This document shows, piece by piece, positions 3-64,000 of a DNA stretch of 64,000 bases. This DNA comes from Anaeroplasmataceae bacterium (GTDB taxonomy: Bacteria; Bacillota_I; Bacilli_A; Acholeplasmatales; Anaeroplasmataceae): positions 32,864-96,863 of the forward strand of contig CAVAQB010000092.1 of the NCBI GenBank assembly GCA_963590725.1, in the 5' to 3' direction. The stretch's first letter is position 1. Each line of letters begins with the position of its first letter. The position numbers and the translations under genes are program-made. Below the pieces are notes generated by a model, which did not search any database, was not told where the DNA came from, and saw nothing but the letters and a program-made list of their open reading frames with translations.

Positions 3-3000
3 GAACAACAAGAAGGTACTACTATTGATAAAATACCTGAAAATCGGTTAGCTAAATTAAAAGAAATTTGGGAAAAAAGTAATCCGTCAGAACAAGTACA
101 TATAGCTGCAGGTGTATTCCAAAACATAATAGAAAGGTCAAGTGTTATTGTAAATCAAAATGCGAAAGCATATACAGATTTATTGTCAAATCAAGAAGTA
201 CAGGAATTACAAAGATTAGCCGCAACTGTTCAGAATAATGCGTTTTTAGGGGATGATAAATTAGCAAGTGCTACTGATAATTTAAATGGAATGGCCATAT
301 CTTTGGCTAGTGCATTTAATGTTGACGATGCTTATAAGCAAGCTATTCAGGACAGAAATAAAGCCCAAGCTGAATATGAAGAAGTTAAAAAAGAAGTAAT
401 AGAAAATCAGAAACTTACTAATGAAGATACAACAATTAGTGAAGAAAATAAAAAAAATAGATTAACTGACTTAATACAAAAACTTGAAGAAGCTAAAGTA
501 AAAAGAGATGAAGCCATTAATAAGTCAAGTGAAATATTAGTATAGACAACAGCAGAAAGAATTAAAAATGGTATAGAGCAATTTTCACAACCTTATTTAG
601 ACCAAGGCTGGGCTAATACTCAAGTAAAAAATTCTTTATTAGCAATGATTAATTTTGCACATTAGTATTATGAAAAATTAAAATTAGAGCAATCGACTAA
701 AATTGGAGAAATAGAAAAAGATAAAAATCTTAGTAAAAATGAAGCTCTCGAACTAAAAAAACCACATCAAAAATTAGTAAGCCTTTATAACAGTAATAAA
801 AAACTTCTAACTAAAATTAAAAAATAGGTAATTAAATTAACTAATTCTCCTATCGAAGCTTTATTAGATCAATTTGCAATAAGTATTGATTCTAAAATTA
901 AAGCTAGTCAAATAATAAAAATTGCTAATGAAAGTTTAGAAAAATCTTCTTCTGATTTGTCTCAATATTCTTTGGCTGAAGATACAAGACAGCAATTAAA
1001 AGAAATTTTAATTCTCATGGATTTAGTTGCTAATACTCTATAGGGAATGAAAGTTGATAATGGAGATTTAGGAAATCTTTATGGATATACTAAAACTTTA
1101 AATCAAATTGCTCATAAAATAGGATTAGAGAATTATGTAGACATGGCTCAAATAGATTCTAACGTGGCTGAAATATTTTTACAAGATTTAAACGGAATTA
1201 GGTCTAGAGTAGCGTTTATGTTAAATGTTTTAAATATTAATCAAGGTTAGAAACTCGCTGAACATAGACGTGTAGGAATAAATAAAAACTATTTATTTTA
1301 TCAAAAAATGGTTAATTTTGTAAATACCGACGATGAAGATTGGAAAGATTTAGATGAGTTAAAATCTATAGTTGATAAAGCAGGAACACTTAAAAAATAC
1401 TATAAAGAACGTAAATTAGATATACCTAGAGAATCTGAAAAAGAAATAGAAAAAGAAACATTAGCTATAGAAGATGCAATAAATGTATTTTTTACTAAAA
1501 ACATAGATAAAGTTTCAGATGTTAAAACTTTTGGTAGTTTTATACGTAAATCTATAGGTGATTTATATGCTAATCCATCAGATATTTTAAATGTTAATAC
1601 CAAAACAATGGACGATAATTCATTTTTTTGGTGGTTAGCAACTAGAGCTGCTGTATTATCTACTGACTTTCATAAAGAATTTGCTGAAATTTAGGATGAT
1701 ACAATTGCGCCTATTCCAACACAAGAATTAGCAATTTATACTAATTATGCTAGTATAATGAATAAATCTATGTTTATTCATTTTTATAATGGACTTAGAG
1801 AAGCTATAAAAGAAGATTGGAAATAGAAAAATAAAGAACAACGACTTAAAGTAATTGAAAAACAAAATAAAGATTTAAAGTAGGTGTTTGCATCTTCTGA
1901 AAACGCAGAAGATAATGCTAAAGATTATGTATTTTTAGATGTAATAGCTCCCCGTTACGCAGCAATTACTTTTACAGAAGGTATCACTGGAAGTGGTAAA
2001 ACTAATGGAGTTTTTGCTCAAACTATAAAAATGATTAAAAAAAATCATTCTGAACTATTAGATAATGTGTTTTATGTATATGCTGCTGGTGATAATACTG
2101 AAGAAGCTTAGAAAAAAGCTAGAAAACATGCTGAAGCTGGTGCTATTAATCAAGGATTAGATCCTAAACATACTACTTTTATGAGTAGAGAGGATTATAT
2201 GAAGACTATCACTAGCAATAGAGATAAAGCTGAATATAAAGGCAAAGGTCAATATACTGTTAACTAGTCTAGAGTTATTTATAATGGAGAAGATTTAATA
2301 TCTAATAGTACTTTATCAGATTAGAATATTCCAACTTTAGTCTTTGTAGATGAGGTTACAAATATTGATTAGTTGGATTTGGATGATATTAATAATCACG
2401 CTTTAAAACATGGATATTCTGTAATAACAGCAGGCGATACTACACAGTCAGGAGTTCAAGGAGTAATTAATTTAAATGATACGAAAAGTTTAGGAGTTGA
2501 TATGACGACTGAGGCTACCTTAACTTTACAATTATTTCCTACTTATTTTCCAAGGTCTCCTAAACAAGGTGTATCTATGCGAACAGCAAATTCTCAAAAA
2601 ACTAGAAATCTAGCAGCATTACAAGCTTGGGTACAAGATTCTAAACAAACTATACCTTTACATTTTTATAAAGATGATGAGAAAGGAATAATGGGAGATA
2701 CGTATTTTGATCGTGATGATTGGGAAGGGAGTGATGTTAATGAGGATGAAGAAGTAAGTCAAGATTTAAAAAATGACATACAACTTATGATAGATACACT
2801 CAAACCTGATTAGAAGATAGGCTATGTTTATGAAGATGAAAATACTAAACTTTATAAGTTTTTAATGGATAATTATAAAGATAAAATAGAGTTATTACCA
2901 GGAACTACATCTCAAGGACAAGAAGGACAATATTATATTATAGAAATGGCTTCAAATAATCTTACGTTTGTAAAAGATATGTATACTGCTATTACTCGTT

Positions 3001-6000
3001 CTTCTCAAGCTAGTATTATAGTGTCTGACGAAGGTTTTAAAGGTGATCCTATAGAGGATTCTGAAACGCACGATGAATCTTTAGCACCTGAGGCGATTAA
3101 AAAATATTCAGAAAACAGAGTAGCATTATTAACAGATTTAACTAAATCGGGTAAAGATGTTGAATATATACCATTTATAGAATCTAAAAAGAAATCTAAA
3201 AAACCAGTACAATCTCCCGAATTAAAAAATGCTAATGATGTTATTCTCAAAGAAGGACATTGGATAATATATCCTGCAAATCCTGATATAGTAGCAAAAA
3301 TAATAAGTGTTGATTCAAAAAATAAAACTATAACTACTGAGCCTAGTATTCCAAATATAGATATAGATCAAATAAATGCTATATTTGACTCAGAGGAAAA
3401 TGCAAAAGCTACTTTAAATACACAAGAAACTGTAGAAGATTGGTTAAATAAAAATTCTATAGAAAAAGGTAATAAGGTTATAGAAAAAGGTACTAATGAA
3501 GTATATACTCTTATTGATATTGTAGAAGACGAAAACAACGAAAATAAACATATAGTTAAATTAGAAAATTCAAAAGGCGATAATCGTGAAATTAGTTTTG
3601 AAGATTTTTTCAAATCTAAATGGGAAAAATATGTAGATGAGCCTCAAATTACATCTATAAAATCTCCACAAGGTAAGGATATAACTATAGGTAGTTGGAT
3701 ATTACGTAAAGATGCCCAAACAGGTACAGGCATTATAGCTCAAGTTACTAAAATCGAAGGCAATAAATTAATTACAGAAGGAGATTTTTCTGAATGTTTA
3801 GTGTCTGATGTAATAAATGTTTCAAAGAGTAAATTAGGTTCATTGAAACAACAAGAGTCATATAATAAAAATTAGAATCTGAAATCAAAAGATGAAGTTT
3901 TGGATGACGATGGATTAGTTGATGATGAAAAATTACACGAACAAATAGAAACACTAAATTCAAAAATAAATAGATTAATTGATAATAATACTCCATTTGA
4001 AAATGATGCTTGTAATATTTATTTATATAGTTTTAATACTTGTGAAACAGGTGTTGATGAAGATATTGATGGTTTTCCAATTTAGTTTGGAGATTCCGAA
4101 TTAAAAACCAATCGTATAGATAGTATTAATGGTTTAATGAAACTTAAATTAAATAATAGATATTACAATTCTAATCCAAAACATCCTGAATTATTAACGG
4201 TTTAGCAATATACTGATATTATTTGTGAATTGAGAAAAATTATTCTTAATACAAAAAATAGAGACGATATAAGTAAAAAAATTCAAGATGTTCTTAGTAA
4301 ATATTTCGTTATTGAAAAAATTTCTAGTACATTTGGACTTAGTACACATATTGATGACGGTAGATCAACATCAACAGGAGAATTTAAAAGAGCTACTAGA
4401 ACACCTGATGAAAAGTTAAAATTTATAAATAATTTAGAAAATGATCCGAACGCTCAGAAAGCATTAAAAATTAGACGTAAAACAATATCTATTATTATTG
4501 CTGAAGGGGAATAGGATATATTGGAATTACCAATTTTAACTTTCGCTAATCCTTTGACATTATTTCAACAGTAGAAACTACCTTTATCATCAAATGATTA
4601 TAATGAATTATCTAAAATATCGGACTCTTATAAATTGTTAACAGAATTATTTAAAAAATTTAAAGATAACAATAAAGGTATCAGTAAATTAATTGCATTA
4701 TATTTAGGTATTAATATGGATGAAAAGCAAGGTTTGCATAATGGAGATTCTTTTATAGAATTTTCCGATAAAAAATGGACACCTAGTAATAATTTAACTA
4801 ATATGGGAGTTTCTGTAACATCTGATAATAGAGGTATTGATTATTTTGAACAAGGTTATAATATGATTCCTGTTTATACTGATATTAGTAAAATTGCGGA
4901 AAATAAAGCATTACATATCTCTGAATAGATTTATTATGTTGAAGATGATTTTATTTTAGATAATAACGGTGAACCTATTAAATTTGAAGGTAATGATTCA
5001 CTAATTCAATCAGGTATGCCTTTTGTATTAATTACAACTGATAATGATTTGTATGATGATACAGAAATGTATAATGCTTTTATAGAAGATTTAGCAAAAA
5101 TGTCTAAAGATACAACTAAAACCGCAAGAGTTAAATTAGTATATATTGTTCCACCTAGTGTAGGATTACAAGATTATGTTGAAAGTTTAGCTAAAGTAAT
5201 TACTAATCAAAACGGTGCTGAAGATATAGGATTTATATATACAGCTTATCATATTCTTCGAAAATTATCTGAAAAAGAAACTTTGTATAATTTGCTTTCT
5301 GGAAAAGTCACATTAAATAATGAAAAGAATTATATCAAAGCGATTAGTGATATGATTGAAGAATCTAAATCAAAAAATGAAGAAGAGTTAAAAAAATGGT
5401 TGAACGAAACTATAAATCATATTACGGTAGGTGTAAGTAAAAATAATAAACAAGGTTAGAGATTTGAAATATTCAAGCGTTTTCTACTCGATTTATATTA
5501 TCCATCGATGTCTAACGAAGGAAAAAAATCAAAAAATTCAGCAGGAAAACTAAATTAGGAAAACGCAAATTATTTAAACGATTTAGCTAAAAACATACCT
5601 ATTAGATATAGAGCAGCTAAAGATCCAAATGCAACAGATATAGGAATATTCCATCCAATTAAAAGCACAGGATATTTTTATAAAAATAATGCAGGTCAAA
5701 AAATTCCATTTTCTATTAACGCTGCCATTAATACTAATTAGTATATAGCGGATGTATCTAAATTATTAGATGATATATTAAATGTTAAAAAACATAAAAA
5801 CGATATGAGTTATTATATTAAACGTCATATTGTAGCTAAACCTAAAACAAATAATTCTTTAAATTCAGTTAAGACATTTGTAGAGAATGAAATAGGAATA
5901 AATGTAGATAGTTGTAAATCTATAGATGAAATAGTAAATACAATTAACAATAGTAGTAAATATATAGCTTTTAAGAATAAATATGATAATCGTATTACAG

Positions 6001-9500: not shown

Positions 9501-12500
9501 TTTTATAAAAGAATATAATTTAGCACATAGAAATAATCCTATATCTTTTACAGACCAAGTACATTTTATAGAAAATAAGGATGGAAGCATTGGAGTTAAT
9601 AGTGTATTACAAGGTTATCAATCACGTTTTAAAAATCCAACAGAATTAAATGAATTCTTTTATAGGAAAAGCACTGATGTTTTAGGTACTTTATTAAGAA
9701 ATAATTTTAGAGTAGACTTAGCAAATGATTCTAAACAAGCAACTTATATAAAACATTATTTCAAAGATAATCCAGAGTGGATTAATAAAGATAACGGTGA
9801 AATGGTTTTAGGTAAATTACGCATTTAGAATGATACTGAAACAGAAGTAGAAGTAGAAGTAGACATTATAGGTCAAAACCATTTAAACAATTTTTATTAT
9901 TAGTTATCTCATGATGAAGTAGAAACTAAAGGTGAAGTAATTACAAGGTTAAGTCCACTTAGTAAGATTAAACAAGCAGAAGCTGAACTTGAAGAAACTA
10001 TAAATAAACATAAAGACAAAGAAGGATTTGAATATACTTTAGCTAGAGAAAAACGTAGATTAGACGAATTAAAAAGACTACGAGAAGGAATAATAAAAAA
10101 AGAAATTTTATATAATCCTCAATTAATAGCTGATTTACATGAATTTGGAGTTGAATTTGAATTAAATCCTTTACTTAATCAATATAATCATTTAGATTAT
10201 TTGTTCTCACAAGAATTTATGATTTCTACTGTAGGTTCTTTGATAGCACATCCCGCTAAAGGAGCTTTGAATAATAGTCTTGAAGCATAGGAAGCAGCAC
10301 GTTTTAACGCACAACATAAACGTAATGTATCTTACACAGCAGCAATGCAAGAATTTACATTGGGTTTAATGGATGGAATACCTTCCGATTATAATATTGC
10401 TGTAGTTAAAGATGTATTTGATTTAGTTGGAAATGTTACTGGTAATGAAGATTCAGTAAAACCCTATGATGGTGCAACATTCGTAAATCCATTTATTGTT
10501 TATTTGGAAAACGCTTCATTAGGTGCAGCTAAAGCGGGTATTACTAAGAAACAATTTGTACATTTTTATGATGAACATACTGCTACAGGTGGTATTATCA
10601 AAACTTGTGGTTTTGGTATTACTAATGATTGGATGCGCAATTCTCCTAGACTTTAGAAGTTAATGCGTAAAATGACTAATGGAACTTGGATTGATTCTAA
10701 AAATTAGCCAGTGGATTTAGACATCACACATGCTTATGATGATTCAGAAATAGGATATGACGATATATATTTTAGAAAAAATGGACAATATTATCATATA
10801 ACATCTATTAAAAAAGTTGGAATTAATGCTTATGATATAAAAGGTACTGTAGTTGACGTAACAAATAAGTCTGGGCAATTACAAGCTAAATACAAAGAAG
10901 AATCAGATGAAGTAAATTTAAATTCTTTATTTGGAGGAGATGAAAAAACTCCTGTTATTATTGATAACAACTATAAGTTATGGGAAGTTTTTGGAGGTAA
11001 GAACTCACTCATTTTAGATAAAACTGAATTAATTCCTTCTGAAACATCTATTACTAACGTAGTTAAAACTATGAATAGTGTAGGTATTACTCAAGAAGAT
11101 GCTAGTAATGTTAGAACTCAAGATGATATTTATCAACCTCTTAAACATTCTGATATACATTATGTAGCAACAGAAGGAGCTGTAAAACAAGGAGCTGCTA
11201 ATATAAATACATCTGATTTATACGATGGAGATAAACCTCTTAACTTTATGAGAATTCATATGTACCAAGCAGGTATTCAGTTGGATAAAGAACATCACGC
11301 TGATAATAGTGAACTTTCTTTGATGACGCAAGTAGTTAATGCTTGCGCACATCTTGGATATAGTTTAGAGGAATCTTTAAGTATGTTCAATGCTCTACGT
11401 AGTATTACTGATACTGATACAGCTGTATTACTTGATCCAATTAAAGATTATTTATCATCTGATAATGAAATAAGTAAAGAAATTAATTATAAAAAAGCTA
11501 AAGAAGCTATTGTAAATACTGTATTAAAAGCAATATCTAAACAAACATTACAAGATAATGATTTATTACGAGTATTTGCAGACGATTTGATAACTACATT
11601 GAAAGAAGGTGGAGTACTAAAGTATGATGATTTCAAAGATACATTACCTGTTGATAACCCTGGAATTTATTCCAAATTCATGTCTTCTATATCTGTATTT
11701 TTAACTAAAACAGGTATTAAAATGAAAATTCCAGGAATTCTTTCAGTATTGACTCCCTCTTATGGAATAATGTTAACTTATCAAATACCTGTAGTAAAAA
11801 AGGATAAATCTATAGAATGGCATACTTGTAAATGGGAATAGGTTGAATCTTATGCGGAACAAGCAGGTATGTCTGTAGAAGAATATCTAAATACTATACA
11901 AATTAACGCACCTAAAGTAAAAAGTACTAAAGTTGAAAATAACGAAATAAATTTAAATATAAGTAATTTCCGATTAGGTAGAAGTTATTTTATGAGAATT
12001 GGAGGTAAAGATAAAGTTATTAAAATTGATAGTGCTAAGAAATATAAAGCTTGGAAACAAAGAATCTTAACCGATGCTACTATAACCTCAGTTGTAGAGG
12101 ATATAAGAAAAGGTAGAGAACTTGGAACTTACGATGTAGAATTTGAAGGAATAATAGATTCAGAAACATCTTTACATTCATTATATGATTTAGACTCTAT
12201 TTAGAATTTATATGATTTAAAAGATGCAATAGATAGTAAAGATAAAAATGTTCTTATAAACTTTGTTGCTAGGTTAGGTTATTCTGATTTTATAGATATT
12301 GAAAAAGAAACAGTTGATGTTAAAGGTGTTGAAAAAGCTTTACGTAAATTAGTACGTCGAGATTTAGCTGTTTTTTCTAAAGATGGTGGAAAATTCTTTG
12401 AAGATTTAAAAGCTAAAGAAGTATTTGTTAAGATAAATGGGGAAAATGTTTTGGTAAATCGTTCTACAATAAAGAAGACTGCTTATGAAATGGTTTTACC

Positions 12501-24243: not shown

Positions 24244-24748
24244 ACTTTTGTAATTTATAAATTAAATTTTTGTTATCTTCTCTTAATCTATTATTATCTT
24301 TCTTTAAGATATTATTATCTTTTTTTAAGTTTTTAATTCTATCATCAGCATTTGTCATTTTTTCTTTAAACATTGCTACTGATATAGTATAATTCTGAAT
24401 ATCTATAGGTGTTTTTTTATTTAATAATTGATACTTATGTATTACCTTATTTTGTTCTTTAATCTTTTTCTTAGCTTTATTTAAAGCTAATCTTGTATTC
24501 TTAGCTCCTAAACTTTCCATGTCTTCCATTTCAGCTATTTCAGATTCTAAAACACCTAATTTATATTCTATAGATTTAACATATTCTTTCATCTGAGAAT
24601 CATATTCTTTATATTTAGAAAGAACATATTTAAGATTACGAATCATTAAATCTCTTATATCAAGAAAGCTATCGCTATTTGATAATATTTTAGCTTTGTC
24701 ATTCTCTTCTACACACTGAGTACGCGTATCAATTTCAGGTCTTTTCAT
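24191..24748 (-). CDS. Hypothetical coiled-coil protein
   Basis: Lys/Glu/Asn-rich heptad-like sequence with a short KKDNN(I/R)L repeat. It abuts the polB stop. Confidence 0.55.
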   Translation of the reverse strand: MKRPEIDTRTQCVEENDKAKILSNSDSFLDIRDLMIRNLKYVLSKYKEYDSQMKEYVKSIEYKLGVLESEIAEMEDMESLGAKNTRLALNKAKKKIKEQNKVIHKYQLLNKKTPIDIQNYTISVAMFKEKMTNADDRIKNLKKDNNILKKDNNRLREDNKNLIYKLQKYEKTNNLVCSNSVDGQD

Positions 24749-25770
24749 TATTCAAATAATTCTAATTGTCTTGTAAATATAGCATCTACTAATTTTTGGG
24801 CCTCTGTTATATAAAACATATAATTTATTTTATATTCAGATATTGGCTTTTTAATGTATTTATTAAATACAGTAGCACTATATCCAATATTAACACCTAT
24901 TTGTCTACCGTCTTTAAATTCTTTATATAAAGTTCCTCCATTAGTTGAAACATAATAACGAGTTGTTCTATCAAGTTTATCTTCTACTATTTCTGAATTA
25001 CGAATTGTTCTAAACATTGCGTCAGCTGAAGAATTAACTTTTAATCTTAGACAGAAATCAAAAATATCATTATCATTCATTATTGTTTCCTTAATTGGAA
25101 TCCCATATACAAAATAATTTTTAACGGCTAAAGGAACAACTCTCATTGAAGGGTCTTTATGATATTCTTTATATACTTCATAATCACCTTTAAGTTTAAT
25201 ATGTTCATGTTCTGGTGTGTTGTCTTCATATACAGCCAAATAATTATTTACGTCCCTTACACACATCTTAGAATATATGGTTTCTTCAATTGTTAAACCA
25301 GTTTCTTCAGTAAGTTGTTCATTGACTGCTCTAATTTTATTTAGATCTTCTCTAGGAACATATAAAGTTTGTCCATCAGTGTTAGTTTGAATGAATTTTA
25401 ATCTAGGACACACTTTCACCCATCTTTCAGACCACATACATATGAATATTTGACCTGCAATAGTTGTCTTAAAAGTATATAAAGGGTCATAAAGAAAAGA
25501 TTTTTCTTCGTTAGACTTACCATAAGTACCATTAAGAATAAGCTTGTATCCTTCTATTAATACATTATCACGTTGATCTTTAGGCTTATGTTTTTCAGCT
25601 AATCTAGCATCAATAAAACCTACATATTGTTCATTAAACTCAGGACCTAAATGTTCAGGATAAAGACCTAATGATTTAGAAATACTAGGGTAGAGTGACC
25701 CAACGTCATAATCTACAATAACCCAGTCATCATTAGTATCCCAAATTTTAGGTGGAGCACAGCCGTGCGA
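24748..25770 (-). CDS. Family-B DNA polymerase, exon 2 (polymerase motifs A-C)
   Basis: Motif A DYDVGSLYPS, motif B KLILNGTYGKS, motif C IQTNTDGQ. The ORF track starts it at a TTG (25773) that lies at the predicted intron 3' end. Confidence 0.8.
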   Translation of the reverse strand, partial: SHGCAPPKIWDTNDDWVIVDYDVGSLYPSISKSLGLYPEHLGPEFNEQYVGFIDARLAEKHKPKDQRDNVLIEGYKLILNGTYGKSNEEKSFLYDPLYTFKTTIAGQIFICMWSERWVKVCPRLKFIQTNTDGQTLYVPREDLNKIRAVNEQLTEETGLTIEETIYSKMCVRDVNNYLAVYEDNTPEHEHIKLKGDYEVYKEYHKDPSMRVVPLAVKNYFVYGIPIKETIMNDNDIFDFCLRLKVNSSADAMFRTIRNSEIVEDKLDRTTRYYVSTNGGTLYKEFKDGRQIGVNIGYSATVFNKYIKKPISEYKINYMFYITEAQKLVDAIFTRQLELFE

Positions 25771-26887
25771 CAATTATGTTATCATAAAGGCTTTTTATCC
25801 TTTATTTCTTATAGTTTTTGAATCCTATAAGTTCGGCGTACATTTTCACCTTCAGCGTTACCTGTTAAGGGTTGTTAACTCTTGGAGATATTTTATTCTG
25901 ATTTTTCAGGTTCAATCTCTACGCTCTACGGTGCTACAGACTCTTTAGTTTCTGTAGTTACCTCGGGGTTAAACAAAATATATTTTCGTTTTAAATAATA
26001 TTTAGCATTATCGTAAAATTGATGATTTGTCCAATCTAATAATGTTTTTCCTCCAGTTATATATAATCTATAATATTCACAAGTTTTCCCTTGTATTGTA
26101 TATTCCCTGTTTTTAAAAGGCTTAAAAAAATTCTTTATTCTTTTTCCAAATTTTAAAGAATTTAAAACAAAAGAAATATCAGTTGATCCTTTGTGACCAT
26201 CTCCATCAAAAAATCCTCTAATAAAATGTCTTATTAAATTATCAGGAATTATTTCTGGAATATCAAAATCATTATCAAAAGTTTTTTTAGGATGAATATT
26301 ATAATTTTCTAATGTTTCAAACATATGTTTGGAAGTCCATCTTAAAGTAGATTGAGGTTTACGATAATACTTTACTCCAGTTTGATTATTTGATATTTTT
26401 ATTTCTTTATACGGACATATAAATTTTTGAAATAATTTAATTGTATCTATGTCATCAATCGAATTATTAATTAAAAAACGATATGAATAACTATTATTTT
26501 CTTTTTCTTCTTTAATCATACATCCGTCAGCAATAAAAAATCCTAAAAGATATGCTTTTTCTTCAGAATCTATTACATCAAAAAAAGATTCATTAATTTT
26601 ACTATTTGAATTTTTCTTAATGTCTAAATTAAATTCCTTAATCATCTCTGATAACCTTTTAGCTGGAATATCTATTATTTCTGCAATTTCTTTAATATTT
26701 TTCCCTTTTGAATTTAATTTTAATATTTCTTCAGGATAAAATTTGTTAATATATTTTTTAAATTTCATAAATGTATAAATTTAGTTAATCCGAACTTAAT
26801 ACATTTACTCCAATTTTCAAACTCCTTCCCCGATTTTTAACAATTTTTTACATTTTATTTCTAAAATGGGAAGCTACACTATTTTTA
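25771..26887 (-). mobile_element. Group I-like intron carrying a LAGLIDADG homing endonuclease, interrupting polB
   Basis: A 1,117-nt insert separates two in-frame polB halves. Exon-1 end GGAGGU can pair with GCUUCC (26869-26874 on plus), giving a U.G wobble at the splice site. A P2-like hairpin lies at 26851-26868, the insert ends in G, and it holds a free-standing HE ORF. Confidence 0.7.
25926..26768 (-). CDS. LAGLIDADG homing endonuclease (double-motif) with N-terminal HTH
   Basis: LLGFFIADGCM and FIRGFFDGDGHK motifs. It has its own ATG and terminates with TAG. Confidence 0.85.
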   Translation of the reverse strand: MKFKKYINKFYPEEILKLNSKGKNIKEIAEIIDIPAKRLSEMIKEFNLDIKKNSNSKINESFFDVIDSEEKAYLLGFFIADGCMIKEEKENNSYSYRFLINNSIDDIDTIKLFQKFICPYKEIKISNNQTGVKYYRKPQSTLRWTSKHMFETLENYNIHPKKTFDNDFDIPEIIPDNLIRHFIRGFFDGDGHKGSTDISFVLNSLKFGKRIKNFFKPFKNREYTIQGKTCEYYRLYITGGKTLLDWTNHQFYDNAKYYLKRKYILFNPEVTTETKESVAP

Positions 26888-27790
26888 ACCTCCAAGACCA
26901 AAGTCAAACTTATAATTATGAAATATTACAGATTGCTGAAACTCACCTTTCTCTCCTTTTATTGTGATATGTTTAATAGTATCTAAAAATTTATTAAATT
27001 CAGGAGATTCTATTTTGCACCATTTTGGAATACAATCTTTTAGTTTAATTCCATTTGGTCTAGGTGTTCCTCCTGATTTTTTAAGATAATAAGGATTTCC
27101 ACCAGTTTTTCTTGCATATAAGTTTAACATTAATTCTTCTCCCATAGGAACATCTCCCATATTAAGAACATTAACATTAAATTTCTTATTTAAATCTTGC
27201 CTGAGTTTAATCTTATTCTTACCTTTATAAAGAGGATAGTCAGTTTTACCTAACGTAGTTCTTAAGAATAAATATGTAGCCCAAACATCGTTTTTATTAT
27301 ATTCTAGAATACACGTTTCATCACCTTCTTTACACCAAGTAGTATGATGAATTGGCATTTCTTCTACATTTTCCATCCTCATACATACTTCAAGATCTTT
27401 TAATGATGTCATCCTAGCTTTATTGTTATAATGCCAAATTTTATAAAGGTCTATTTGTTGAATATATTTATTCTTATCGGCAATAGTACTGAATTGTTGT
27501 TCTATTATTTCTTGAGATTTATTATATATTTTTTGAGATATTTCATATCCCGATAAATTATAATATTCAGAACTATGTCTTAATAAATGATGTTCTAAAG
27601 GATAATCATATCCTTCATTATTATATCCGACTTGCAATATTTTATCTCTTCTTAAATGAGCAACTAACTCATTATATTGATTTAGCCAAGGAGATATAAC
27701 GAATTGATACCATGTATCAGAATGAGGATCGTATCCAGTATATGTAAAGACATTACTTAAACATTCTAAATCGTAAATTTCTAGAATCAT
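26888..27790 (-). CDS. Family-B DNA polymerase, exon 1 (3'-5' exonuclease domain)
   Basis: ExoI IYDLECL, ExoII GYNNEGYDYP, ExoIII YNKNDVWAT. The ORF runs into a TAA (26885-26887) that belongs to the intron. Confidence 0.8.
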
Positions 27791-28635
27791 AAAATAGTTT
27801 TTAAATCAATACGTTCTCTTAACTCTTTTAATGCCTTACTTTTTAATTGTCCTACACGTTCTTCAGTAATTCCAAATTTAGGAGCGATTTGACTTAATGT
27901 TAAAGGATCACAATCAATTCCAAAAAACATTTGAAGAATTACTTTATATCTAGGTGCTAACTTACTTAAAACTCTTCTTATAGAAGATTTAAAAGAATCT
28001 TGAATTAAATTATTATCAGCATTAGTAGCGTTAGGATTGCTTATTATATCAACTAATGAATTCTTTTCTTCATCATCAAAAGTAGTATCTACAGAAACAC
28101 AATTTACACAATAACTATATGTTTTAGATATACTTTCTTCTGATAATCCTGTGAGTTCAGATAGTTCTCCATAAGAAGGTTTACGTCCATTAATTTTTTC
28201 AAACGTTTCGGTTTGTTTCTTTAATTGACGTAATAGTTCATTATGACCATTAGTGATTCTTATAGTATTACTTTTTAATATTAAAGCATCCAAAATAGCT
28301 TGTCTAATCCACCATACAGCATAAGATATAAATCTAATATCTTTACTTCCATCAAATTTCTTTCCAGCTTTAATTAAACCATAAGTACCTTCCTGAATTA
28401 GGTCATTAAAAGATAAACCTTGTCCTCTAAATTGTTTTGCTACAGAAACAACGAATCTTAAATTACTAGTAACTAACTTATCTAATGCTTTTTTATCTCC
28501 TAGTTTTATCTTTTTTGATAATATTTTTTCTTCATCTCTATCAATTAGAGGAATTTTATTTATATCTTTAAGATATAACTTAGTAGATATATCATCAATG
28601 TTAGTTATGCTCTTAGTTATTTTAAAATTTCGCAT
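27787..28635 (-). CDS. Sigma-70 family RNA polymerase sigma factor (regions 1.2-4.2, no region 1.1)
   Basis: Region 2: NLRFVVSVAKQFRGQGLSFNDLIQEGTYGLIKAGKKFD...YAVWWIRQAILDAL. Region 4.2: LSQIAPKFGITEERVGQLKSKALKELR. Length 282 aa. Confidence 0.85.
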   Translation of the reverse strand: MRNFKITKSITNIDDISTKLYLKDINKIPLIDRDEEKILSKKIKLGDKKALDKLVTSNLRFVVSVAKQFRGQGLSFNDLIQEGTYGLIKAGKKFDGSKDIRFISYAVWWIRQAILDALILKSNTIRITNGHNELLRQLKKQTETFEKINGRKPSYGELSELTGLSEESISKTYSYCVNCVSVDTTFDDEEKNSLVDIISNPNATNADNNLIQDSFKSSIRRVLSKLAPRYKVILQMFFGIDCDPLTLSQIAPKFGITEERVGQLKSKALKELRERIDLKTIL

Positions 28636-28931
28636 AATTTAGTAGATTTCAGAAATTCTATAATATATCCAGCATAAGTGTTAGATTCTTGTTCAGAATA
28701 CTCACCACACGAATGCCATTGAAATACGTGTAGAACTTCGTGAATAAGTGTATTTAAAATCTGTTCATCTTTTAATTTAATTAAATCTTTATTATCATCT
28801 TCTACGTGAGTAGCGATTCTAATTACATCAGTAATACTGTTATAATCTCCGAAATCTTGATTGGGTAGTGTATCCACTACCTCAATCTTGATTTCTTGAG
28901 AATTAATAGTAAATTTATCAGGTATTTTCAT
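28617..28931 (-). CDS. Small HExxH protein, ImmA/IrrE-like metallopeptidase core
   Basis: LIHEVLHVFQWH motif preceded by FGDY...IRIA, a pattern typical of COG2856-type peptidases. It overlaps the sigma start by 19 nt. Confidence 0.5.
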   Translation of the reverse strand: MKIPDKFTINSQEIKIEVVDTLPNQDFGDYNSITDVIRIATHVEDDNKDLIKLKDEQILNTLIHEVLHVFQWHSCGEYSEQESNTYAGYIIEFLKSTKLCEILK

Positions 28932-28935
28932 AAAT

Positions 28936-30153
28936 TTATTCTAAATCAAATCTAAAAATTCTAAGTTTTGGCTGTGTAGGGATTCCGTCATCAGAATAAT
29001 TAAAGAAAGTACATTCGGCTTTATGTCCTTCATATTTTTCTTCAAAATTTTCTACATATTCTGCTTTAGTTTCTCTATTTCCAACTGGCATTGCTTCAAA
29101 AGTACGACCATCTTCTAATTCACAAGTAAATGTCATATCTTCTGAACCACGTTTACCAAGTTTATATCCAACTACTTTAAAGTCTTCAGATTTATATTCT
29201 TTAATTTTAATAAGATTATTACAACGAGAACCTGGCTTATAAGGTTTAGTTGGATCTGTAATAACAGCTCCTTCAAATCCTTCTTCTACCCATTTATCGT
29301 GAAGTTCTTTCATATTATCCCAACCTGTAACGTGTTGATGATAAAGTATACGTACTTCTTGTTTAATATTATCATCTATAGGTGTCATATATACAAGAAT
29401 CCCAAGTTTATGATTCATCTTTTCCATCAAGAAATTCCAACGTTCTTGTGCTGGTATATCTGGATTAGCTATATCATAACAATCATAAACCCAATATTGC
29501 AGCCATTCACAATCATAAGCATTTTTCTCCATTCTAGCTGCACCACTAATTTGCTGCAGGGTTTTACCTCTTACAAAAAGTTCTCCATCAAGTACTATTG
29601 TAGGATTAGCTTCAAAGAATTTAACCAATGGTGTATAAGTACGTATATGCTTAGTAGAATAATCATAGTGTTCACCGCCTCTAGAAGCTGTATGCACTTC
29701 TCCGTCTTTGTAATAGAATAAAGCTTTAACTCCATCGAGCTTTCTTGATATTAACCAATCTTTATCAAAGATTTTCTTATTAGTAACCTTATCTGCTTGC
29801 TTAGCAAGTTGTGGTTTAATTACTCCAGCTTGATTTGTTTTAACTTCTCCGAATAAAGAGTTAAGTTCTTCATCTGTATATTCATTAGGGTGTTTTTCTA
29901 CTTCAATATATCCTTTATCTAGATAACCTTTAACAAAACTGTTAAATTGAAGTATTGATTGTTCTCTATGAGTACGTCCTGCTTTACCAATCTTAATCCA
30001 GGTATCTGGACTTTTAGTGATTTTACCTCTTACTTGTCCATATTCTCTAGTAATAAGAAATCCATGTTCAGGTTCTTTCCAATCTTCATCCCATTCTACT
30101 ACTACAAATCGAAACTTTCCAGTTGATGCTTTTCCTAATAGATATTTTTTCAT
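28936..30153 (-). CDS. ATP-dependent DNA ligase
   Basis: Motif I KLDGVK, motif III LDGELF, motif IV EGAVIT, motif V NLIKIK. Confidence 0.85.
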   Translation of the reverse strand: MKKYLLGKASTGKFRFVVVEWDEDWKEPEHGFLITREYGQVRGKITKSPDTWIKIGKAGRTHREQSILQFNSFVKGYLDKGYIEVEKHPNEYTDEELNSLFGEVKTNQAGVIKPQLAKQADKVTNKKIFDKDWLISRKLDGVKALFYYKDGEVHTASRGGEHYDYSTKHIRTYTPLVKFFEANPTIVLDGELFVRGKTLQQISGAARMEKNAYDCEWLQYWVYDCYDIANPDIPAQERWNFLMEKMNHKLGILVYMTPIDDNIKQEVRILYHQHVTGWDNMKELHDKWVEEGFEGAVITDPTKPYKPGSRCNNLIKIKEYKSEDFKVVGYKLGKRGSEDMTFTCELEDGRTFEAMPVGNRETKAEYVENFEEKYEGHKAECTFFNYSDDGIPTQPKLRIFRFDLE

Positions 30154-61826: not shown

Positions 61827-62230
61827 ATTGTTTCTTTAAGTCGTTCTATACTTTTTTGACTAAAATTTTCTGTAACCTTTGTCAGTGTTTCAAAAAAATG
61901 CTCTTTACTTATTTCCTTGATTCTACCAGATTCTAAATAAACCTTATATAAATCGGAACTTAGTGTTATTTGTCCAAGTAAATCAAAGGTAAAATAATAG
62001 TCATCTATATCATCTGAAAAACTATAATTAAATGTTCTACCTTGAAGAAATACATCACCATTGCGAACAGAAACAGAAGTTACATAAATATAACCAAAGT
62101 CTTCTATATGTAGATACTTACCTATCCAAGACTTTTCTTCTAATTGAACATAAAGTCTCTTTTTTTTGAGAAATTTGATTTGTTCAGAAAGCTCTTCAAT
62201 ATTCTCATCTATCTCCTTTATTGTTGTCAT
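61823..62230 (-). CDS. Hypothetical protein
   Basis: Intact 135-aa ORF. Confidence 0.55.
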   Translation of the reverse strand: MTTIKEIDENIEELSEQIKFLKKKRLYVQLEEKSWIGKYLHIEDFGYIYVTSVSVRNGDVFLQGRTFNYSFSDDIDDYYFTFDLLGQITLSSDLYKVYLESGRIKEISKEHFFETLTKVTENFSQKSIERLKETI

Positions 62231-62307
62231 TTTTCAAATATTTATCATATAAACACACTGCCTCAAATGCTATTTCATAAGCACATCATTTACCATATTT
62301 ATATAGA

Positions 62308-62601
62308 TTATAGTTCTTCTTTAATCTTAAACGTTAGGGTGTTCATGAGTCTATCTAGATTAAACAATGTCTCCTCAATAAAGAAGAAAGTTCGGCAATT
62401 ATTTTCTTTAATCCATTCTGTAAATCTCTCTGAGAAATCAGAGTAATCTTCACTATTAATAACTTCCTTGAATTTATTTAGAAGAACTTCCCTTAATTTT
62501 TCAAATGTAAGAGCATAACTACAATAGTATTGTTGTGTTATGTTACATAAAATTGTAGGAAGATGTTTCTCTATAGTTTGATTAAATTCATTTATATTCA
62601 T
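62308..62601 (-). CDS. Hypothetical protein
   Basis: Intact 97-aa ORF. Confidence 0.5.
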   Translation of the reverse strand: MNINEFNQTIEKHLPTILCNITQQYYCSYALTFEKLREVLLNKFKEVINSEDYSDFSERFTEWIKENNCRTFFFIEETLFNLDRLMNTLTFKIKEEL

Positions 62602-62993
62602 AATTTTATATCATCATCACATCCCAATGCCCATAAAATATGTTGTAATTGATGGACATACTTAATTTCTTTTTTACTTATATCTTCATTAGGATAATAG
62701 TCTGGACACGTATATAATTTACTGTCAACAAGATTATCACAAGTGCGCAAATATGCAGGTGAATCGTTAAAATAATAAATATATTCGTCACTACCTTTGC
62801 TCACTTCTGTCCAACCATTCTTAAGAAGAATGTCACCAGTAAGAGGAATAGGTTCTAAATATTTTTCCAAAGCACTGTTATCAACAGTAGCGTCAGGATA
62901 ATGAATTAAACATTCTCCATAGATGTTTATGCTAACAATCTTGGCTACTTTGCCATTATATTGTACCCAATCACCAAGTTTAAAATCTGTCAT
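62598..62993 (-). CDS. Hypothetical protein
   Basis: Intact 131-aa ORF. Confidence 0.55.
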   Translation of the reverse strand: MTDFKLGDWVQYNGKVAKIVSINIYGECLIHYPDATVDNSALEKYLEPIPLTGDILLKNGWTEVSKGSDEYIYYFNDSPAYLRTCDNLVDSKLYTCPDYYPNEDISKKEIKYVHQLQHILWALGCDDDIKL

Positions 62994-63387
62994 AATACTT
63001 CAAGTTTATTATTTTGATTATGCATATCTACTAGAAAATACAATAGTTGTTCACAAGATGTGCCAAAGCAATCACATTCATGCATTTTAGCTGCTGAACA
63101 ACTATTAATACAGAAAGCATTAGCTAACGCTTTCATTTCTTTTACTTCTGCCATATAATCTTAATTATTATAATTAATCAAATCTCTACAGGTTCATAAC
63201 TTACAAAAATATTAGATTCTTCTATTTCTATAGTATTTACACTTTTAAAGAATATATTTCGTTGTATAAATTCTCTGGAACAAACCAAAGGTTTTTATTA
63301 GCATCAAAGCCAATTTCTTCATATCTTGGATGTCCCATAAAGTCTTGAACTTCTGGCCAAGAAACTGATATATATTTATTCATTATA

Positions 63388-63576
63388 CTAAATTTTTACA
63401 GGTTCATTATCCCAACTCAGCTCTTTATCAATTAACTTTTTTATAGAGCCTTTAGGGAGAATAACAAAATCACTGTTATCTATACGAGGGTCATTAAGCC
63501 ATTCTTCTTCACCTCTTTTAGGAGGGTAACTAAAAATAACCTCACTACCATCCTTATCTACTACTAAGTATGCCAT
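63388..63576 (-). CDS. Hypothetical small protein
   Basis: 62-aa ORF directly downstream of the structured spacer; TAG stop. Confidence 0.5.
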   Translation of the reverse strand: MAYLVVDKDGSEVIFSYPPKRGEEEWLNDPRIDNSDFVILPKGSIKKLIDKELSWDNEPVKI

Positions 63577-63783
63577 ATTATAAATTTATTTAACGGAATA
63601 AATTTAACTGATGTGCTGTTACGCTAAAGAAACAAATGATTTATCCCCACCGCTTATAACATAGCTATTAACTCTATGTTACATAACCGTGAAGGGTGTT
63701 AACCCAGAGATTTCATTCAACCCTCAGGAAATGTTTCACTCTTTAAAAGATGGCTGCTTCTAAGCCTACTTTTCAGTTAAATA
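63577..63783 (-). other. Structured non-coding spacer with a block similar to the polB intron
   Basis: 207 nt without an ORF. It has a long imperfect hairpin at 63648-63691 (perfect 8-bp core 63657-63664 / 63674-63681). Block 63686-63728 resembles 25860-25919 of the polB intron. Confidence 0.35.
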
Positions 63784-64000
63784 TTATTCTTTATAATCAT
63801 CAGTGGTACCAATTAGTTTAGCTGTTTCTTCATTATAAGGGAGACATTCACTATAACCAGCACCGCCTAAACCAGTATACGGATAATCATCTTCAATAGC
63901 ATAATGAGAGAACATATCAGCTATCCAAATATGATTTTCATACCTACATACTATTTTATCAAAAGGTTTGAAATCACAATGAGGAGATGGAATTTGATAA
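63784..64000 (-). CDS. Hypothetical protein, N-terminus outside the window
   Basis: Open frame from the window edge (codons from 63999) to TAA 63784-63786: ...YPYTGLGGAGYSECLPYNEETAKLIGTTDDYKE. Confidence 0.5.
   Translation of the reverse strand, partial: YQIPSPHCDFKPFDKIVCRYENHIWIADMFSHYAIEDDYPYTGLGGAGYSECLPYNEETAKLIGTTDDYKE

Follow-up and report, generated by a model that had tools for sequence, protein, structure and literature searches.

A group I intron with a LAGLIDADG endonuclease gene within the gene for the DNA polymerase of a large crAss-like phage

Two introns of the Lactobacillus phage JCL1032, one in the terminase gene terL and one in the tape-measure (TMP) gene, are amongst the closest described relatives of the element reported here, and both were proven to be self-splicing (Riipinen & Alatossava 2004, as cited in PMC6669764). 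The TMP intron has been listed as core-homologous to the Bacillus cereus intron term-IVS1 (Tourasse & Kolsto 2008; PMC2504315). For the crAss-like phages of the Delta and Zeta groups a high density of group I introns was described, with PolB, the major capsid protein (MCP) and primase amongst the interrupted genes (Yutin et al. 2021; PMC7886860). Here we analyze a stretch of 64,000 nucleotides (nt) from contig CAVAQB010000092.1 (the window, whose numbering is used throughout), in which the DNA polymerase gene polB is interrupted by 1,117 nt that contain a LAGLIDADG homing endonuclease gene. With high confidence, we interpret the insert as a mobile group I intron, removed from the polB pre-mRNA by the standard two-step guanosine-initiated pathway and spread by LAGLIDADG homing. 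The intron is a new example of a type known in phages, group I introns in crAss-like polB having already been reported in 2021 (PMC7886860). A mildly useful general point is that the Rfam group I model fails to reach a very widespread phage IA lineage.

One polymerase gene in two pieces

Three open reading frames (ORFs) make up the locus, all on the minus strand: one of 301 amino acids (aa) at 26885..27790, one of 280 aa at 25926..26768 and one of 341 aa at 24748..25773, which opens with TTG. The first and the last match PHROG 1252 'DNA polymerase' (663 positions) over ranges that adjoin, profile positions 56-333 for the N-terminal and 335-653 for the C-terminal half, and are therefore contiguous halves of one protein. 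The locus divides as follows.

26888..27790, minus strand: polB exon 1 (Exo I-III region), defined by the ORF, PHROG 1252 and homologues running straight into SHGC
25771..26887, minus strand: group I (IA-type) intron, 1,117 nt, defined by covariance model, covariation and same-site relatives
25926..26768, minus strand: gene in loop L5 for a double-motif LAGLIDADG homing endonuclease of 280 aa, identified by Pfam and PHROG
24748..25770, minus strand: polB exon 2, starting with SHGCAPP and carrying motifs A (DYDVGSLYPS), B (KLILNGTYGKS) and C (QTNTDG)

Exon 1 ends in ...FDFGLGG with U26888, its last base, at the 5' splice site, and joining 26888 to 25770 yields ...FDFGLGG-SHGCAPPKIW.... The same register, ...YKFDFGLGG-SHGC... 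with no insertion or deletion, is present in all nine uninterrupted homologues that were aligned (70-90% identical). Many further uninterrupted polB relatives of about 642 aa occur at 70-90% identity in a large protein collection, and a 179-aa query spanning the junction is matched in a single piece in 477 phage records. At the splice site the window reads GGT-TCG, while intron-less alleles read GGG-TCT (L005) or GGC-TCG (L006, L007); of these alleles, the interrupted one alone supplies the U required at a group I 5' splice site. In L006 the uninterrupted site reads ...GGACTTGGGGGC-TCGCATGGT..., and for the window the spliced cDNA junction would be predicted as ...CTTGGAGGT-TCGCACGGC....

The two halves are thus one gene with an exact junction, as proposed in an earlier reading made from the letters of the window without database searches (the sequence-only reading), and the adjoining PHROG ranges and the nine uninterrupted homologues bear this out. 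Its boundaries, U26888 and G25771 around an insert of 1,117 nt, also hold, the homologues being in register and the covariance model described below ending on G25771. It further anticipated that gene callers would report two polB fragments, one with a spurious start: the called TTG of the C-terminal half (25773-25771) is the final three bases of the intron, and the N-terminal half is listed in the protein database as a separate 301-aa product. The assignment to DNA polymerase family B fared less evenly. It is backed by the Exo motifs of the window protein (YDLE, NNEGYDYPL, YNKNDV), which like motifs A, B and C are conserved in the homologues, by PHROG 1252 and by the family B annotation of the homologues. 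With the Pfam PolB models, neither the window halves nor protein P0001 reach threshold; the relative P0013 passes DNA_pol_B_2 with 27 bits (cutoff 25.8). A sequence search of the PDB with the spliced polymerase gave no match at E<=1.

A covarying group I core and its endonuclease gene

BLAST aligns the final 196 nt of the insert (25966-25771), at 67-87% identity, with non-coding stretches from 59 phage records, and the match ends exactly at the proposed 3' splice site. The records include phages of Clostridioides, Clostridium, Staphylococcus, Streptococcus, Bacillus and Enterocloster as well as one crAss-like phage, and the matched stretches typically lie within split genes, 3' of a homing endonuclease ORF. 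A motif scan of viral contigs added at least 112 further loci. Compact, ORF-less copies display the complete order of parts, namely guide - P2 - P3 - AAAAU - P4 - AA - P5 - AA - P4' - P6 - J6/7 - P7 - P7.1 - P3' - P8 - GAAAAUG - P7' - P9 - P9.1 - GAUAACA-N-G. Removal of the L021 element from its DnaE-like gene restores GISDHG-NMIKAL, with a U.G pair between exon CGGU and guide UUGCCG. From nine compact seeds of such related phage elements we built a covariance model, R1. It has one match in the window, 25976-25771 on the minus strand (147 bits, E~6e-45), whose last position falls on G25771, and at least 119 copies across 98 sources among the matches listed.

The pairings were assessed on 117 distinct sequences, with P7 added to the alignment as a pseudoknot. 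Standard pairs occupy 93.3% of cells, compared to 62.1% in shuffled alignments and 32-44% when the partners are slid by 1-3 columns, and double-sided changes are seen in 47 of the 50 pairs, the P3/P7 pseudoknot included. The covariation score is 0.623 versus 0.153, and none of 500 shuffles reached the observed values. The first two pairs of P7 hardly vary (G-C in 101/102 cells, C-G in 96/102). Because this alignment had been fitted to R1, an alignment-free check was added on 22 unique cores cut out by means of anchors: P7 takes one of two forms, GCAUA/UAUGC or GCGUA/UACGC, without a single mixed case, while P7.1 occurs in 17 different sequences and pairs 5/5 in every core. The split module P3-J3/4-P4-AA, exactly complementary to its partners, was recovered 736-921 nt upstream in 7 of 16 other split cores and in 0/16 of the downstream and reverse-complement controls.

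R1 also recognizes both JCL1032 introns, at 2491-2696 in terL (145 bits) and at 12105-12386 in the tape-measure gene (92 bits), each within a gene annotated as two joined pieces; in terL the last G of the R1 match directly precedes KTTLESG, restoring the Walker A motif GRKNG-KTT. The TMP intron is matched by the Rfam group I model RF00028 as well (59.4 bits, above the gathering score of 50). On this intron the two models place P3, P4, P5, P6, P3', P8 and P9 on the same nucleotides, and the P7 strands and J8/7 of R1 align with the canonical GACUA/UAGUC and with GAAGAUA, respectively; the canonical helix names therefore apply. The RNA of the window intron is a member of a group I family that is backed by covariation and contains introns proven by experiment to splice themselves, and its structural membership in group I is close to certain. 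The parts of the window intron, all on the minus strand, are the following.

26869..26893: P1, exon GGAGGU (26893-26888) with guide GCUUCC (26874-26869) and U26888.G26874 at the splice site
26851..26868: P2 hairpin CAUUUUA-GAAA-UAAAAUG, CAUUUU (26868-63) with AAAAUG (26856-51), from the minimum free energy (MFE) fold
26826..26843: upstream core strands, P3 5' UUGUUA (26843-38), J3/4 AAAAU (26837-33), P4 5' CGGGG (26832-28) and J4/5 AA
25771..25976: contiguous 3' ribozyme core, the R1 match of 147 bits, with the parts below
25968-64: P4'
~25957-25934: P6
25924-20 and 25840-36: P7, 5' GCGUA and 3' UACGC
25919-15 and 25889-85: P7.1, GAGAU with AUCUC, enclosing an inner hairpin (25910-25898)
25877-72: P3', UAACAA
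25870-25849: P8
25847-41: J8/7, GAAAAUG
25831-25/25814-08: P9
25805-25799/25790-84: P9.1, with loop AUAAAAAG
25783-71: intron tail GAUAACAUAAUUG

The intron opens with UAA, the stop of the exon-1 ORF, and closes with the terminal G25771. The 5' strands of P3 and P4 and J3/4 sit about 900 nt upstream of their partners because the endonuclease ORF occupies loop L5. When this ORF is deleted, an unconstrained MFE fold of the window core recovers P1 (lengthened by 2 bp into the intron), P2, P4, P6, P7.1, P9 and P9.1. A guanosine-binding site would be expected in P7 as a conserved G-C pair beside a bulged base; by eye, there is a possible bulged A before the P7 strand GCGUA.

Introns at the same polB site in three related loci allow a direct comparison of the pairings.

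Window: P1 GGAGGU/GCUUCC, P3 UUGUUA/UAACAA, P4 CGGGG/CCCCG
L122: P1 GGGGGU/GCUCCC, P3 UUAUUA/UAAUAA, P4 CGGAA/UUCCG
L123: P1 GGUGGU/GCCACC, with the 3' part for P3 and P4 outside the contig
L124: P1 GGAGGU/GCCUCC, P3 UUGUUA/UAACAA, P4 CGGGG/CCCCG

All four preserve the U.G pair at the splice site, while the exon and guide strands of P1 change compensatorily (L122, L123, L124), and L122 shows long-range compensatory changes in P3 and P4 across the ORF of about 900 nt. P2 retains its GAAA loop on a varying stem. Wherever the 3' end is available the same-site introns restore GG-SHGC, those of L122 and L124 ending in a G before SHGC. Intron-less and intron-bearing polB alleles coexist in close relatives. 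In L124 (4662-5390) the LAGLIDADG gene is broken into ORFs of 91 and 132 aa beside an intact ribozyme core (137.6 bits), which fits endonuclease decay in a homing cycle.

Much of this had been foreseen in the sequence-only reading. Its call of a group I intron is carried by the R1 score and the family covariation, and its P1 with the U.G wobble lies at the positions it gave and covaries amongst the same-site introns. The P2 hairpin CAUUUU/AAAAUG is in place in the unconstrained fold and varies in its stem around the constant loop. P3, put forward there as tentative, is found at UUGUUA (26843-38) and UAACAA (25877-72), with compensation in L122. Also well founded was the claim of a free-standing double-motif LAGLIDADG ORF: two stretches of the 280-aa ORF match Pfam LAGLIDADG_3 (37 bits, cutoff 22.5), and its motifs, LLGFFIADGC and IRGFFDGDGH, both have the acidic end. 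The ORF in addition matches PHROG 4645 'endonuclease', and the I-DmoI/I-CreI chimera aligns to it weakly at both motifs. Intron-less alleles that could serve as targets of the endonuclease exist in L005 and L006.

Coding and ribozyme sequence overlap at the end of the endonuclease ORF, whose last ~14 codons run through P4', P6 and J6/7, with the UAG stop in J6/7. The endonuclease ORFs of other family introns (L073, L066, L105, L113) likewise read through P4'-P6 (or P2-P6) and share with the window a stop at the conserved UAG/UAA in J6/7 (C-G-UAG/UAA-A-GC), so that the ribozyme core supplies the C-terminus and the stop codon of the ORF. In the window this stop is TAG 25926-25928, and read-through would add about 11 residues up to a TAA. 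Upstream of the ORF in L5, TTTG-N19-TAAGTTCG (26791-26821, minus strand) resembles the Bacteroidota promoter consensus, and similar motifs occur in L122 and L123; over the window the pattern TTTG-N19-TAnnTTnG is not enriched (4 found, 2.1 expected). An 8-bp hairpin, AAAUGUAU...AUACAUUU (26769-26806, minus strand), ends right before the endonuclease ATG and might hold back endonuclease translation from unspliced RNA.

Splicing and homing weighed against alternatives

In the proposed pathway, polB and its 1,117-nt IA-type intron would be transcribed as one pre-mRNA, in which the canonical core would fold such that P1 presents U26888 in a U.G pair with guide G26874 and P3-P9 form the P3/P7 pseudoknot. 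An external guanosine would attack after U26888, and the freed 3'-OH of exon 1 would attack after G25771, joining ...GGA GGU to UCG CAC... and giving a 641-aa polymerase that reads ...FDFGLGG-SHGC.... In a co-infection, the LAGLIDADG protein encoded in L5 would cut intron-less polB at the conserved GLGG-SHG site, and repair would copy the intron into the cut allele (homing). Splicing in this phage, its dependence on GTP and the activity of the endonuclease are what we infer; splicing because the core is intact and scores like a proven member, because its pairings are kept by compensation and because a working polymerase is needed.

Several points weigh against this account. P5, as read from the letters, is weak, and P10 comprises just 4 bp outside the strict canonical register. 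With a host that is probably one of the Bacteroidota, the missing Shine-Dalgarno sequence ahead of exon 2 is little argument against that half being translated on its own. Lastly, RF00028 gives no match in the window at its gathering score and none at E<=10 on 25650-27000. The sequence-only reading had named a missing covariance-model match, together with a missing spliced junction in transcript data, as a reason to abandon the intron; the RF00028 scan indeed found nothing, yet the lineage-specific R1 scores 147 bits. At the gathering score RF00028 recovers none of the more than 20 family copies in 19 loci, the JCL1032 TMP intron being the only member it passed. Rfam likewise left this intron family undetected in four related loci and in the phiCD211 copy that lacks an ORF, reporting just unrelated neighbouring introns. 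We attribute the failure on the window intron to the divergent P7, J6/7 and J8/7 of the lineage and, in this case, to the ORF that splits the core. As the model misses these copies, a missing Rfam match is a property of the model and not evidence against the intron.

The alternative that survives best, though we consider it unlikely, retains the group I fold and makes efficient splicing in vivo dependent on a protein, which could be a host chaperone or the LAGLIDADG protein in the role of a maturase; the intron would then lack true autonomy. Such dependence would suit a core with a weak P5 that an 843-nt ORF interrupts, and a bacterial group I intron of Thermotoga provides a documented case of LAGLIDADG maturase activity (PMC3984707), but the ORF-less family members (L021, phiCD211) keep intact cores without an encoded protein, and the JCL1032 introns of the same family are reported as self-splicing.

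It is very improbable that the insert is a decayed relic or effectively a free-standing endonuclease gene, with polB made as two separately translated polypeptides as in some T4-like phage genes that homing endonuclease genes have split. The TTG that opens the C-terminal ORF might be taken as a start codon in favor of this, but it consists of the last three intron bases, and the break is exact to the nucleotide at U...G boundaries whose joining restores the native sequence. Bacteroidota translation does not need a Shine-Dalgarno sequence, so the possibility of a separately translated second half gains from the probable host. Opposed to this are the intact helices of the entire core, with a score of 147 bits against 145 for the proven JCL1032 terL intron, and the preservation of P1, P3 and P4 by compensatory changes in the same-site relatives. 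An intein (common in crAss-like phages; PMC7886860), read-through of a recoded stop or a group II intron has next to no likelihood and is refuted by the sequence: a TAA, not a TAG, directly follows exon 1, and no two of exon 1, the endonuclease ORF and exon 2 share a frame (offsets 119, 1117 and 998 nt), which excludes intein and read-through, while the 119 nt before the ORF are too few for domains I-III of a group II intron, of which Rfam has no match in the window.

The wider lineage and its relation to known introns

The mobile group I intron of the window shares a set of marks with its relatives: P7 is GCRUA/UAYGC in place of GACUA/UAGUC, a single P7.1 carries a UGAA...AAUAUAAU loop, the P9.1 loop is GGAUAAAAAGCC and the tail is GAUAACA. 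On balance we lean towards placing it in a very large, sequence-distinct group IA lineage that is nearly unseen by Rfam and has moved between Firmicutes phages and Bacteroidota crAss-like phages. Since the Rfam model misses the lineage, its introns go undercounted in phage and virome data; if the placement is true, phage genome annotation systematically under-reports group I introns, and a separate curated model is warranted for the lineage. In the tape-measure gene of phiCD211 (L003:~2810-3386), two different group I introns lie about 24 nt apart, an ORF-less family copy (R1, 203 bits) and an RF00028-type intron (41.7 bits), the latter alone being annotated in the record. Within the window, a candidate second copy of the polB intron in 62000-64000 (63577-63783) reached at best 4.2 bits with R1 run without filters and is not a copy.

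The window belongs to a large crAss-like phage. It covers a replication module with NrdD, Thy1, a Toprim primase, DnaB, a DEAD-box helicase, a ligase, a sigma factor and polB, and has a weak DNA match to cr116_1; its contig measures 157.9 kb and related phages 157-185 kb. polB closes an apparent operon of ligase, HExxH protein, sigma-70-like factor and polB (27787-30153, minus strand), and the gene order ligase, sigma factor, polB is kept in L006 and L124. Amongst the polB homologues P0121-P0235, fragments break off at five or more recurring positions, all of them within conserved motifs: after GLGG and before SHG (at least 10 clusters; the window site, residue 301), after DYDVG (motif A), after KLILNG (B), after QTNT (C), and after RDVN. 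This suggests at least five hotspots for intron or endonuclease insertion in polB. The syntenic polB of L006 (7476-8930) is intact at the site used in the window and has a GIY-YIG endonuclease insert after ...CVRDVSN; R1 gives no match on this insert, which is therefore a different type of element.

For annotation, the two polymerase fragments and the spurious TTG start should be replaced by the 641-aa polymerase. Beyond this, phages whose hosts belong to distant phyla carry nearly the same ribozyme core, and a polB lineage is saturated with homing sites, neither of which is new in kind. If the lineage is as we read it, this phage clade's polB, in which at least five sites are occupied, each of them in a catalytic motif, would offer a natural system for studies of homing-site competition.

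The JCL1032 introns resemble that of the window in belonging to the same RNA family by R1, in the order of their helices and in the U.G pair at the 5' splice site, and all share the 3' tail GGAUAAAAAGCC-N5-GAUAACA-N-G. They differ in residing in the terL and tape-measure genes of a Lactobacillus delbrueckii siphovirus, whereas the window intron sits in polB of a crAss-like phage and carries a LAGLIDADG gene in L5; P7 is the canonical GACUA/UAGUC in the JCL1032 TMP intron and GCGUA/UACGC in the window. Through the JCL1032 TMP intron, the window intron is linked to the IA1 introns TMP-IVS3 and term-IVS1 of Bacillus cereus-group prophages, where, as here, related cores are fitted to different homing sites by a change of P1, but which carry GIY-YIG or HNH genes or none instead of LAGLIDADG. 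The extra P7.1 between P7 and P3' is an IA trait of the window intron itself; the narrower label IA1 would follow only from the literature chain that runs from the JCL1032 TMP intron over term-IVS1 to TMP-IVS3. The introns of Yutin et al. (2021; PMC7886860) come from the same kind of phage and the same host gene, polB, and likewise carry LAGLIDADG genes; they were called from their endonuclease domains, whereas the RNA fold, the exact boundaries and the family assignment are worked out here. The td intron of T4 with I-TevI (IA2) is, like that of the window, a mobile group IA intron in a phage gene of nucleotide or DNA metabolism; its homing endonuclease ORF, too, loops out of the core, and additional P7.x helices lie between P7 and P3'. 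RF00028 detects the td type, in which P7.1 is accompanied by P7.2 (see also the IA2-like intron of L004), whereas the lineage of the window intron has a single P7.1 with the conserved UGAA...AAUAUAAU loop and an endonuclease of another family, placed in L5.

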